Sequence record: PZ445526.1
DNA from: a phage
Direction: 5' to 3' (one strand)
Length of the DNA: 64,000 nt
Both the position numbers and the translations under genes were made by a program. Within the stretch, counting starts at the first letter, position 1. Every line of letters starts with the position of its first letter. This document shows positions 59,200 to 64,000 of this stretch, piece by piece. Below the pieces are notes generated by a model. That model saw only the letters and a program-made list of their open reading frames with translations, was not told where the DNA came from and searched no databases.

Positions 59200-62100
59200 A
59201 TGGCTACTTTAAAACAAATACAATTTAAAAGAAGCAAAATCGCAGGAACTCGTCCTGCTGCTTCAGTATTAGCCGAAGGTGAATTGGCTATAAACTTAAA
59301 AGATAGAACACTTTTTACTAAAGATGATTCAGGAAATATCATTGATTTAAGCATTTCCGCTGGCGGTAATATCAGTGGAAATGTAACTATTGATGGAACT
59401 TTACGCGTCAATGGACCAATAAACAATTTTGGAAATTTTTCCACAAGTGGCCAGATTACCGCTGGTAGTAGTATTTCAGCTCAAGTTTTTAGAGCATTGC
59501 AAGGTTCGTTTTATTCAAGAGCTTCAACCGGTGAAACAGCAAATGCCCATTTATGGTTTGAAAATGCCGATGGCACTGAACGTGGCGTTATATATGCTCG
59601 TCCTCAAACTACAACTGCCGGTGAAATACGCCTTAGGGTTAGACAAGGAACAGGAAGCACTACCAACAGTGAATTCTATTTCCGTTCTATAAACGGCGGT
59701 GAATTTCAAGCCAATCGTATTTTAGCATCAGATTCGTTAGTAACTAAACGCATTGCGGTTGATACTGTTATTCACGATGCCAAAGCGTTTGGACAATATG
59801 ATTCTCACTCTTTGGTTAACTATGTTTATCCTGGAACCGGTGAAACAAATGGTGTAAACTATCTTCGTAAAGTTCGCGCTAAAGCTGCCGGAACCATGTG
59901 GCATGAAATCTGTACAGCTCAGACTGGACAAGCTGATGAAATGTCATGGTGGACTGGTAATACTCCTCAGTCTAAACAATATGGTATTCGTAATGACGGA
60001 CGAATTGCTGGACGTAATAGCCTTGCATTAGGTACATTCACTACAAATTTCCCGTCTAGTGATTATGGTAATGTCGGTGTAATGGGCGATAAATATCTTG
60101 TTCTCGGTGACACTGTAACTGGCTTGTCATACAAAAAAACTGGTGTATTTGATCTAGTTGGCGGTGGATATTCTGTTGCATCTATTACTCCAGATAGTTT
60201 CCGTAGTACTCGTAAAGGTATATTTGGTCGTTCCGAGGACCAAGGCGCAACTTGGATAATGCCTGGTACAAATGCTGCTCTCTTGTCCGTTCAAACACAA
60301 GCTGATACTAACAATGCTGGAGACGGACAAACCCATATCGGGTACAATGCTGGCGGTAAAATGAACCACTATTTCCGTGGTACAGGACAGATGAATATCA
60401 ATACCCAACAAGGTATGGAAATTAACCCGGGTATTTTGAAATTGGTAACTGGCTCTAATAATGTACAGTTTTATGCTGACGGCAATATTTCTTCTATCCA
60501 ACCTGTTAAATTAGACAACGAATTATTTTTAAATAGTTCTAATAATACCGCAGGACTTAAATTTGGCGCCCCTAGCAAAGTTGATGGAACAAGAGCTATC
60601 CAATGGAACGGTGGTACTCGCGAAGGACAGAATAAAAACTATGTGATTATTAAAGCATGGGGTAACTCATTTAATGCCACTGGTGATAGATCTCGCGAAA
60701 CGGTTTTCCAAGTATCAGATAGTCAAGGATATTATTTTTATGCTCATCGTAAAGCTCCAACCGGCGACGAAACTATTGGACGTATTGAAGCTCAGTTTGC
60801 TGGAGAACTTAATGCTAAAAGTATTAATGCCGTCGAAAATTTTAAAGTTAATGGATTAAGCACTTTAGTCGGCGGAGTTACAATGAGCAATGGGCTTAAT
60901 TTAACCGGCGGTTCTTCTATTACTGGACAAGTTAAAATAGGCGGAACATATGATGCGTTAAGAATTTGGAACTCTCGTTATGGCGCCATTTTCCGTCGCT
61001 CAGAAACATCATTACATATTATCCCAACTAATGAAAATGAAGGGGAAAACGGTGCAATAAACAACCTTCGTCCGTTTAGTATTGAGTTAGGCACCGGCAC
61101 AGTTTCTATGTTACATGATGTTCATTTAGGAAATTCCGGATCTTCTACAGGATTATTACAAGTAAGTAATAGTCTTAAAACTATTAAAATGATATGTCCA
61201 GTGACTATTAATGAACGCAATGCAGCGCTTACCCTGGATTCTCCTTCATCTTCTTCTGCTAATTATTTACAGGGTTCTAAAGCTGGAACTAAATCGTGGT
61301 ATGTTGGTCTTGGTGGCGCTGGAAATGATTTATCGCTTTATAGCCAATCTTATGGACATGGTCTTGTTATAAGCGATAATTTCGTGTCAATTAGTAAACC
61401 TCTTAAAGTTGGAAATGCACAACTAGGAACTGACGGTAATATTACTGGTGGTTCTGGTAATTTTGCTAACTTGAATACCACGTTAAATCGTAAAGTTAAT
61501 TCTGGATTTATTACTTATGGAGCAACCTCTGGATGGTATAAGTTTGCAACAGTAACAATGCCACAATCCACTTCGACAGCCTTCTTTAAAATAGTTGGAG
61601 GTTCTGGATTTAATAGTGGATTATTCACCCAATGTAATATTGCTGAAATTGTTTTACGTACTGGTAATGAAAGACCTGCTGACTTAAATGCTGTATTATA
61701 CACAAGAACAATTGGAGCTGCATTTAAAAATATTGCAGTTAATAACGTCTCTGGAGATACATATGACATCTATGTTTATGCTGGAACATATTGTAATCAA
61801 TTAGCTTGTGAATGGGCATGTACTGAAAACGCTACTATTAGTGTTATTGGTATTAACTCATCTACACAATCACCTGTAGATGATCTTCCAGATACAGCAG
61901 TTAACGGTCAAGTTGCTAATGTTCTTAATAACTTGGTTGATAGCGGTAAAGGTAAGCGTTATGAAGCCGAGTCTGAAATAGCTATTAATAGCCAAACCGG
62001 TATTCGTATCAGAAGCAATGCCGATAAAACTGGTTCTGTAGCTACAATGTTACGAAATGATGGCGGTAGTTTTTATATTCTGTTTACAGATAAAAATGAC

Positions 62101-62931
62101 ACCGATGGCGCAGCAACTGTTAATGGTGAGTGGAATAGTAAACGTCCTTTCGCAATTAACTTAACAACCGGCGAAGTGATGATGAATAATGGCATAGCTG
62201 TTCGCAGCGCTGCTTTATTCTATAATAGCATAAACGTCAAAGATAATGGTTCTATTAACTTTGATAAATCAGGTGCTAACCCGAGAAATATGAGAATATT
62301 TCATGCTGGCGATGCTTCTCGCGGTAACCGTATTGAAATTGCCGATGAAACTAATTATATTGCTTACTTTGAAAAAGCTCCAGGTGGAGCTAACCGCTTT
62401 GTAGTAAATAATGCTACTGTATCTGGTGTTAATCAAATGAATTCATTTGGTGTCAATACATCAAATGCTCTCGGTGGAAACAGTATAACATTTGGTGATA
62501 CCGATACTGGTATTAAGCAAAATGGTGATGGATTATTAGACATATATGCGAACAACGCACAAGTATTCCGTTTCCAAAACGGCGATTTGTACTCATACAA
62601 AAATATAAATGCTCCAAACGTTTATATTCGTTCTGATATTCGTTTAAAATCCAACTTTAAGCCTATCGAAAATGCACTTGATAAAGTTGAAAAACTTAAC
62701 GGTGTCATTTATGATAAAGCTGAATACATCGGTGGAGAGGCAATTGAAACTGAAGCGGGTATTGTGGCTCAAACGCTACAAGACGTTTTACCAGAAGCCG
62801 TCCGTGAAACAGAAGACAGCAAGGGTAATAAAATACTCACTGTTTCTTCTCAAGCCCAGATTGCTCTTCTGGTTGAAGCTGTGAAAACGCTTTCTGCTCG
62901 TGTAAAAGAACTTGAATCTAAACTTATGTAA
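59200..62931 (+). CDS. 37: Long tail fibre distal subunit gp37 with C-terminal intramolecular chaperone (peptidase S74-like) domain
   Basis: 1243-aa ORF; Gly/Ser/Asn/Thr-rich fibre sequence; last about 98 aa contain [13 protein letters not shown]...LNGVIYD motif typical of auto-cleaving chaperone domains. Confidence 0.9.
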
Positions 62932-62932
62932 A

Positions 62933-62960
62933 AGAGGGCTTCGGCCCTCTAAGGATTTTT
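62933..62960 (+). terminator. Stem-loop between genes 37 and 38
   Basis: AGAGGGC-TTCG-GCCCTCT then AAGGATTTTTA before the gp38 ATG. Confidence 0.55.
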
Positions 62961-62961
62961 A

Positions 62962-63744
62962 ATGGCAATTGTAGGTGTTCCTGGCTGGATTGGTGAATCT
63001 GCCGTGAATGAAACTGGACAACGCTGGATGGATGCTGCGATGAGAGAAGTTCGTGTTTCAGTTCCCGGTTGGATGAGTTCAATGGCTGGGCAATCTAAAG
63101 AGATTCATTATAGCATTGGTGCTAGCAATTCTTACAATAAAGACACACTAATAAACTGGATAAAAGCCCAAGGAAGCACTCCTGTTGTTATTACTATTAC
63201 AGGAAATATTGTTTCTCAATCTACTGGTGTTCCATGCTTAGATTTTCCTAGCTCATTAACTAATGCATATGTTACGTTGATCATTAACTCAGGTGTGACT
63301 GTTTACGGACGCGGTGGCAATGGTGGTAGTAACGCTGCTGGTGCTGCTGGTGGTAACGCAATTAATAATGGCATCGGTACACGCTTGCGTATTACGAATA
63401 ATGGTGCAATCGCTGGAGGTGGCGGCGGCGGCGGCGGCGGTAACAGGGGTAAACTAATATTTGGTGGTGGCGGTGGTCGCCCATTCGGTGCTGGTGGGTC
63501 TTCCTCTCATATGAGTTCCGGTGCAACTGCTGGCACCATTTCCGCTCCGGGTAAAGGATCTGTTGGTGAGGGGTCTCTTAGCGCATATACAGGCGGCGCG
63601 GGCGGCAACGTTGGTGCTGCTGGAGGAAGATGTAATACTCAAGGTAACGGTACAGAATATAACGGCGGCGCAGCAGGTAAAGCTGTTACTGGTAATGCTC
63701 CAACTTGGACTAAAGTTGGTACAATATACGGTTCAAGAGTATAA
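62962..63744 (+). CDS. 38: Receptor-recognising adhesin gp38 (T2-type, glycine-rich motifs)
   Basis: 260-aa ORF with conserved N-terminal MAIVGVPGWIGESAVNETGQRWMDAAMREVR and multiple poly-Gly motifs separating variable segments. Confidence 0.88.
   Translation: MAIVGVPGWIGESAVNETGQRWMDAAMREVRVSVPGWMSSMAGQSKEIHYSIGASNSYNKDTLINWIKAQGSTPVVITITGNIVSQSTGVPCLDFPSSLTNAYVTLIINSGVTVYGRGGNGGSNAAGAAGGNAINNGIGTRLRITNNGAIAGGGGGGGGGNRGKLIFGGGGGRPFGAGGSSSHMSSGATAGTISAPGKGSVGEGSLSAYTGGAGGNVGAAGGRCNTQGNGTEYNGGAAGKAVTGNAPTWTKVGTIYGSRV
63415..63441 (+). repeat. (GGN)9 glycine tract containing perfect (GGC)6 inside gp38
   Basis: ggaggt ggcggcggcggcggcggc ggt encodes GGGGGGGGG; second shorter GGTGGTGGCGGTGGT tract about 25 nt downstream. 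Confidence 0.9.
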
Positions 63745-63776
63745 TTTTGAATAAATATCCTTAAAAGGAGGGTCTA

Positions 63777-64000
63777 TGGCAGCACCTAGAATATCATTTT
63801 CGCCCTCTGATATTCTATTTGGTGTTCTAGATCGCTTGTTCAAAGATAACGCTACCGGGAAAGTTCTTGCTTCCCGGGTAGCTGTCGTAATTCTTTTATT
63901 TATGATGGCGATTGTTTGGTATAGGGGAGATAGTTTCTTTGAGTACTATAAGCAATCAAAGTATGAAACATACAGTGAAATTATTGAAAAGGAAAGAAAT
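63777..64000 (+). CDS. t: Holin T (5' part; continues beyond window)
   Basis: ATG at 63777 with AAGGAGGG SD; MAAPRISFSPSDILFGVLDRLFKDNATGKVLASRVAVVILLFMMAIVWY... has the single N-terminal TMD of T4-type holins. Confidence 0.85.

Follow-up and report, generated by a model that had tools for sequence, protein, structure and literature searches.

The 64,000-nucleotide stretch of phage DNA analyzed here (the window) carries a gene 38 whose product, identical to the gp38 of phage K3, is very probably a T2-type adhesin that caps gp37 and binds OmpA through a polyglycine-II (PGII) sandwich, where a tract of nine glycines (the Gly9 tract) forms a central helix of constrained length, and the (GGC)6 repeat found in the coding DNA of this tract would be accidental. 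In the arrangement proposed here, each long tail fibre would end in a gp37 trimer capped by a single copy of gp38, attached through its N-terminal three-helix domain, and the distal end of gp38 would be a PGII sandwich, built from glycine-rich motifs that take the form of extended helices with tight hydrogen bonding. The hypervariable segments between these motifs would be the loops that touch the receptor, here the OmpA of Escherichia coli, and the Gly9 tract (residues 152–160) would be the central PGII helix that runs out to loop B (NRGKLIF). Purifying selection would keep the tract at nine residues, and the (GGC)6 repeat would be an accident of synonymous drift between GGT and GGC in an obligatory run of glycine codons, rather than a hypermutable repeat maintained as such.

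The genes of the locus, in window coordinates, are as follows:

59200–62931, plus strand: gene 37, encoding the distal half-fibre subunit (1243 amino acids), the partner to which gp38 attaches (Pfam).
62962–63744, plus strand: gene 38 (ORF, Pfam GP38 and Gp38_N, exact match to P07876, AF2 model).
63776–64000, plus strand: start of gene t (holin), truncated by the end of the window (PF11031 Phage_holin_T, E = 2e-32).

Gene 38 begins with an ATG and encodes 260 amino acids, according to the ORF list and the sequence. By exact-sequence look-up, its product is identical in all 260 residues to the gp38 of Enterobacteria phage K3 (Swiss-Prot P07876, UniRef100_P07876, CAA29074.1), which is entered under the title "Receptor-recognizing protein gp38, Enterobacteria phage K3". 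The protein matches the Pfam families GP38 (PF05268, residues 47–260, E = 3e-71, 240 bits) and Gp38_N (PF21721, residues 1–42, E = 4e-18, 65 bits), both above the cutoff of 25, as well as PHROG 2056, described as "tail fiber protein; host specificity". Its matches in the PDB, by phmmer, are to the gp38 of S16 (6F45_D, E = 7e-50) and the receptor-binding domain (RBD) of PP01 gp38 (9V85, E = 3e-35), the latter aligning with residues 39–260. Glycine makes up 61 of the 260 residues (23%), including 50 of the 146 residues at positions 115–260, and the GC content is 36.4% in the window, 47.6% in gene 38, and 53.3% in the C-terminal half of the gene. Three other ORFs that overlap the GC-rich tract (63314–63457, plus strand; 63392–63526 and 63454–63642, minus strand) were rejected as by-products of the glycine-codon composition.

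Gene 38 is a full member of the family of T2-type gp38 adhesins, each of whose testable defining features was found in it. A T4-type gp38, the tail-fibre assembly chaperone, is ruled out by the presence of a Peptidase_S74 domain in gp37 and by the Pfam and PHROG matches, which are solely to adhesin or host-specificity families; the T4 protein has only its gene name and its position after gene 37 in common with the gp38 of the window, and is an unrelated protein, absent from the virion. The original prediction of an adhesin of the T2 type is thus borne out by PF05268, PF21721, PHROG 2056, 6F45_D, the structural similarity (TM 0.81–0.89), and the identity with P07876, and its proposal that host specificity resides in gp38 is backed by the adhesin families and the exact match to K3.

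The Pfam domains of gp37 include Peptidase_S74 (PF13884, E = 3e-15) at residues 1145–1202 (window 62632–62805), together with gp37_trimer and Gp34_trimer. This "chaperone of endosialidase" end implies autoproteolytic C-terminal processing, as in the fibres of the T2 type, and the presence of an S74 chaperone domain within gp37 itself agrees with the layout of the T2 type, with a processed gp37 and a fibre capped by gp38.

The order of the genes is g34-g35-g36-g37-g38-t, with spacers of 30 nt between g37 and g38 and 31 nt between g38 and t, and the start of gene t marks the g38-t junction of the T-even phages. PaulHMueller, 310Ecol104PP, and 236Ecol005PP likewise have an annotated holin there, and the surrounding 24 kb share approximately 94% identity with genomes of Tequatrovirus, among them FriedrichMiescher and RB18. 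The window is either K3 or a very close relative carrying the K3 gene 38. Among the other fibre proteins of the window that were looked up, gp36 had an exact match in the protein collection, and gp37 and gp35 had none. A search for the exact gp38 protein among assemblies found no encoding contig on record.

K3 is among the textbook examples of an OmpA phage, and its receptor is classical knowledge. The use of OmpA by K3 is stated in PMC3157838, and in PaulHMueller (Bas45), the closest of the sequenced relatives, infectivity is lost on an ompA mutant and fully restored by complementation (PMC8594841). More broadly, related gp38 adhesins share their receptor across Tequatrovirus, Mosigvirus, and Krischvirus, and the phylogeny of gp38 predicts the receptor (PMC12032242). 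Given the identity with K3 and the difference of a single residue from Bas45, OmpA would be the expected receptor of the gp38 of the window. For annotation, the window is thus predicted to carry a K3-type, OmpA-specific adhesin, which makes the host range predictable from the sequence.

The comparison with known gp38 proteins reflects this placement. Between the window and the K3 protein (P07876; OmpA-specific, Henning laboratory), there is no difference at the protein level (260/260), and the gene occupies the same place, between g37 and t. PaulHMueller gp38 has 99.6% protein identity, the sole change being E29A in the attachment domain, with the same 9-Gly tract and the same hypervariable loops, although the DNA of its gene 38 is only 95% identical. 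The S16 (6F45 chain D) and PP01 (9V85) proteins have the same attachment domain, beta-helix, and PGII sandwich (approximately 43% identity, TM 0.76–0.89), and a long central poly-Gly helix at the same place, but bind OmpC, and have other hypervariable loops and a central run of eight glycines followed by a non-glycine residue, rather than the nine glycines of K3.

In the gp38 of Krischvirus (RB49/JSE/Phi1), the similarity is confined to part of the gene, with 88% nucleotide identity over nt 133–771, a tract of nine glycines as in the window, and an NRG[RK]L[VI]F loop that is likewise shared, whereas the N-terminal attachment module is diverged and the gene lies away from the g37-t locus, following a 73-aa ORF (PMC3157838). 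When the window is aligned to JSE (L004), positions 63094–63732 are 88% identical to 301–939, and the first 132 nt, which encode the attachment domain, are strongly diverged. The receptor-binding module common to the window and Krischvirus looks like a case of cross-genus sharing.

Little of this is new. The sequence of K3 gp38 was presumably published in 1987. P07876 has long been in Swiss-Prot, the family is textbook material, and the folds were solved in 2018 (S16) and 2026 (PP01), so that the adhesin identity, family, fold, and receptor class are correct but already known. The glycine-rich motifs and hypervariable segments, and their roles, have also been described (PMC3157838, PMC6851490, PMC12892980).

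The domains and motifs of gp38, and the repeat within its coding DNA, are placed as follows:

62962–63087, plus strand: N-terminal attachment domain, residues 1–42, which docks on the gp37 trimer's tip (PF21721; role from S16, PMC6851490).
63100–63741, plus strand: receptor-binding region of beta-helix and polyglycine-II sandwich, residues 47–260 (PF05268).
63415–63441, plus strand: Gly9 tract, residues 152–160, called GRM2 where five GRMs are numbered and corresponding to the central PGII helix 3 of S16 (sequence, alignment to S16).
63421–63438, plus strand: perfect (GGC)6 within the Gly9 tract (sequence; in relatives, the nine codons are broken by GGT or GGA).
63442–63462, plus strand: hypervariable segment 2 (HVS2) or distal loop B, NRGKLIF, residues 161–167, a putative OmpA contact (between Gly9 and GGGGGRPFG).
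63463–63489, plus strand: next glycine-rich motif, GGGGGRPFG, residues 168–176, the return PGII strand (conservation).

The AF2 model of gp38, built on 54 homologues (alignment A2), has a mean pLDDT of 92.9. A Foldseek search with this model recovered 6F45_D (E = 1.6e-21, TM 0.81/0.85) and 9V85_C (TM 0.76/0.89), and no further PDB fold, the next match having E > 3. The predicted fold is the beta-helix and PGII sandwich of S16 gp38. The N-terminus of the model has helices at residues 10–18, 23–29, and 38–41, and the tryptophans of the attachment domain (W9, W22, and W37) are conserved, with W9 and W22 being nearly invariant in alignment A2. In the receptor-binding region, glycine-rich motifs alternate with hypervariable loops, and the invariant columns of the same alignment (54 homologues) are mostly glycines. 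The hypervariable segments of S16 gp38 make the distal receptor-binding loops (PMC6851490), and loop B of PP01 gp38, the equivalent of NRGKLIF, is needed for adsorption (PMC12892980).

The role of the Gly9 tract is best judged from the S16 structure. By phmmer, the segment AIA-GGGGGGGGG-NRGKLIF-GGGGGRPFG of the window aligns to WIC-GGGGGGGG-FRVGHTEA-GGGGGRPLG of S16 without gaps, the tract itself pairing with 151-GGGGGGGG-158 plus F159. These S16 residues (151–158) constitute PGII helix 3, a long helix central in the three-layered sandwich, with backbone CO and NH groups saturated by hydrogen bonds with the neighbouring helices (PMC6851490). Given the alignment to this central helix, the Gly9 tract is likely to be a core strand leading to loop B, and not a flexible spacer.

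In the gp38 model, residues 151–160 have a pLDDT of 98, and DSSP assigns them to neither helix nor strand. Among the 54 homologues, G152–G157 are invariant and G158 is nearly so, and in the GGGGGRPFG motif, G171, G172, P174, and G176 are invariant, with R173 and F175 being nearly invariant. In T6, the deletion of GRM2, GRM3, or GRM4 yielded no viable phage (PMC3157838). The seven-residue loop of the type N[RY]G[RK]L[IVS]F is preceded by a run of nine glycines in 105 of the 106 proteins that have it, and in the wider family (188 proteins parsed for the tract and the next motif), the run varies from six to nine glycines, paired with loops of differing lengths.

In the DNA, the tract reads GGA GGT (GGC)6 GGT, in frame, encoding Gly152–Gly160, and TRF reports the repeat at 63421–63440, with a period of 3, 6.7 copies, and 100% matches. 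It is the sole perfect non-homopolymer trinucleotide repeat of at least four units in the 64-kb window, and in mononucleotide shuffles, runs of four units or more have on average 0.64 start positions. The chance of at least six consecutive GGC among nine glycine codons is approximately 3e-4 when the gene-wide glycine usage outside the tract is considered (GGC 21%), and approximately 0.04 at the GGC frequency found inside the tract of the relatives (50%). The (GGC)6 repeat is thus real and locally unusual, yet it lies one synonymous step from the state found in 310Ecol104PP. The original prediction was accurate in every detail of the 260-aa ORF and of the repeat inside the nine glycines, and the description of the latter as unusually long for a phage of low GC content also holds for the window.

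In the five genes aligned (window, PaulHMueller, 310Ecol104PP, 236Ecol005PP, and JSE), there are nine glycine codons in each case, and the synonymous codons differ. The tract of 310Ecol104PP reads GGA GGT (GGC)3 GGT (GGC)2 GGT, from which the window differs by one T to C, and that of PaulHMueller reads (GGC)5 GGT (GGC)2 GGT. The longest perfect GGC run is six in the window, five in PaulHMueller, three in 310Ecol104PP, and two in the other relatives. In the NRG[KR]L subgroup, each of the 11 different DNA sequences has nine glycine codons, in a mixture of GGT, GGC, and GGA. The K3 protein cluster has exactly nine glycines throughout (10 members), and so do 110 of the 111 members with a readable tract in nine related clusters, and no allele of more than nine glycines, that is, no expansion, was found among the 188 proteins.

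A two-flank pattern allowing for 6–12 codons recovered six loci from IMG/VR, all with a 27-nt tract and no length variants, and a scan of metagenome and genome contigs with the 5' flank of the tract (20 nt, AAYAAYGGTGCWATCGCTGG) returned 37 matches, all of them due to chance and without a glycine run.

Gene 38 of the window is separated from that of PaulHMueller by 39 nt differences, which translate into 37 synonymous codon changes and one amino-acid change (E29A). From this comparison, it is clear that selection acts on the gp38 protein, with the DNA drifting freely. The (GGC)6 repeat is a mildly lucky outcome of drift, and not a conserved feature. A ratio of 37 synonymous changes to one non-synonymous change also amounts to purifying selection of unusual strength, in an adhesin regarded as "hypervariable".

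The constraint on the length of the tract is nevertheless not absolute, given the existence of four in-frame contraction alleles of the same tract elsewhere in the family: P0015 (−5 Gly), P0032 (−3), P0041 (−3), and P0223 (−2). Across 771 nt, P0032 matches P0029 at every base apart from 9 nt deleted between GGCGGT repeats, and P0041 has a single mismatch to P0040 and has lost one copy of the GGTGGCGGT tandem pair. P0223 is 6 nt shorter than P0217, and P0015 has four glycines rather than the nine of its relatives (−15 nt). By locus, the contractions are −9 nt in L022 (versus L024), −9 nt in L023 (versus L026), −6 nt in L065 (versus L066), and −15 nt in L021. All four, which are independent of one another, belong to gp38 genes of the RB49 (Krischvirus) type that are located away from g37, and come from different samples (ERR689735, SRR21291524, ERZ27280761, and GCA_047674915.1), each allele coming from one or two contigs of a single sample. 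They are absent from the K3-type cluster, and all arose in interrupted tracts, between short direct repeats. The absence of length variation, which the original prediction had named as evidence against itself, is thus found in the K3-type cluster, but not in the family as a whole.

In addition to these alleles, P0097, P0092, and P0120 have the central glycine run fused straight to GGGGRPFG, with the whole HVS2 loop missing. In T6, an HVS2 deletion was not recovered as viable phage (PMC3157838).

It is possible, though rather unlikely, that the contraction alleles are sequencing or assembly artefacts or defective genomes, and that the length of the tract is effectively invariant in viable phage. 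The recovery of each variant from one or two contigs of a single sample would be expected of such errors, to which GC-rich, low-complexity DNA is prone. However, both the deletions (6–15 nt) and the tract (27 nt) are shorter than the typical assembly k-mers, so that the collapse of repeats would not be expected, and all four deletions are in frame. The contigs of P0041 (162 kb, genome-length), P0015 (60.7 kb), and P0223 (49 kb) would also carry the consensus genotype of a phage abundant in the respective sample, which suggests that these three alleles belong to replicating phage.

Oligoglycine-coding DNA has reportedly been seen as a recombination linker, with shuffling at conserved motifs, an idea attributed to Henning and Krisch and to papers from the Henning laboratory. 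A reading in which the glycine-codon DNA acts mainly as a microhomology "recombination linker", for the swapping or deletion of hypervariable segments between and within g38 genes, is unlikely to apply here. It would account for the imperfect direct repeats that link the tract and the next glycine-rich motif, TGGAGGTGGCGGCGG at 63414 and TGGTGGTGGCGGTGG at 63462 (87% identical), for the loss of HVS2 from P0097, P0092, and P0120, and for the C-terminal 640 nt being 88% identical with Krischvirus JSE next to a different N-terminal module, and exchanges at or near conserved motifs have been reported (PMC3157838). The boundary of the module shared with Krischvirus, however, is near nt 133, with every GRM lying downstream of it, and no crossover fell between GRM1 and GRM5 in any of the 14 selected chimeras of RB5 x RB32/33 (PMC3157838), the same study in which the HVS2 deletion of T6 failed to yield viable phage. 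If real, moreover, a linker role would add to the structural role of the glycines, rather than replacing it.

The proposal that the (GGC)6 run is a slippage-prone repeat, in which the in-frame gain or loss of glycines shifts loop B and diversifies receptor binding in the style of a contingency locus, is highly improbable. Its attraction lies in the status of the run as the only perfect trinucleotide repeat of at least four units in the 64 kb, in the recurrence of in-frame contractions of exactly the Gly9 tract in public assemblies (P0032, P0041, P0223, and P0015), and in the requirement for loop B, which adjoins the tract, for adsorption in PP01 (PMC12892980). However, neither polymorphism of the repeat number among close relatives nor purity of the repeat across relatives, as would characterize a contingency locus, was found: the K3 cluster (10/10) and the nine clusters (110/111) are held at nine glycines, with no expansions among the 188 proteins, and the longest pure run of 6 units in the window contrasts with 5, 3, and 2 units in the relatives, whose tracts are interrupted by GGT or GGA, the opposite of a selected contingency tract.

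The contractions that do occur are deletions between direct repeats of 6–9 nt in interrupted tracts, rather than the slippage of units in a pure run, and the tract would be a hydrogen-bonded core helix, and not a spacer (PMC6851490). Single-strand folding of both DNA strands revealed no hairpin potential beyond that of the shuffled controls (z = −1.3, +1.0), which leaves no structural argument for the instability of the tract. In the papers on gp38 that were consulted, no Gly-tract length variants were found, and the reported changes in host range or escape are point substitutions in the hypervariable segments, such as D190G in T2 and the point mutation of Pet-CM3-4. The slippage that had been predicted is not supported in the K3 lineage, where the nine glycines are constant and the purity of the repeat is not conserved; for the phage of the window the mechanism lacks support, and it is only faintly suggested elsewhere in the family.

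A broader version of this proposal, in which the central poly-Gly helix of the gp38 adhesins is a recurrent natural hotspot for in-frame contraction through deletions between short GGN direct repeats, is just as improbable. Here, the shortened helices would be functional, with loop B retracted by approximately 3 Å per residue (our own estimate), offering T-even phages a cheap and coarse means of retuning to receptor variants or of escaping them, and the pure (GGC)6 of K3 would be the most mutable allele of the family. If the contraction alleles are real and viable, they would show the extent of shortening that is tolerated by the PGII sandwich, which is relevant to the engineering of gp38 adhesins.

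The two spacers that flank gene 38 also contain possible regulatory signals, the first of which is placed as follows:

62933–62950, plus strand: stem-loop in the g37-g38 spacer, with a 7-bp stem and a TTCG loop, AGAGGGC-TTCG-GCCCTCT (terminator-like scan).

This is the sole terminator-like site in the 62700–64000 interval, and the g38 Shine-Dalgarno sequence AAGGA (62951–62955) lies directly 3' of it, followed by a T-run (62951–62961 in all). The stem-loop could be a weak terminator or an mRNA-stabilizing hairpin, and is best considered putative. The g38-t spacer (63745–63775) contains AATAAATA, a 7/8 match to TATAAATA, the late-promoter consensus of T4, and the scan for promoter- and terminator-like signals also returned a sigma70-like TTGGTA-18-TATAAT site that overlaps the stop codon of gene 38.
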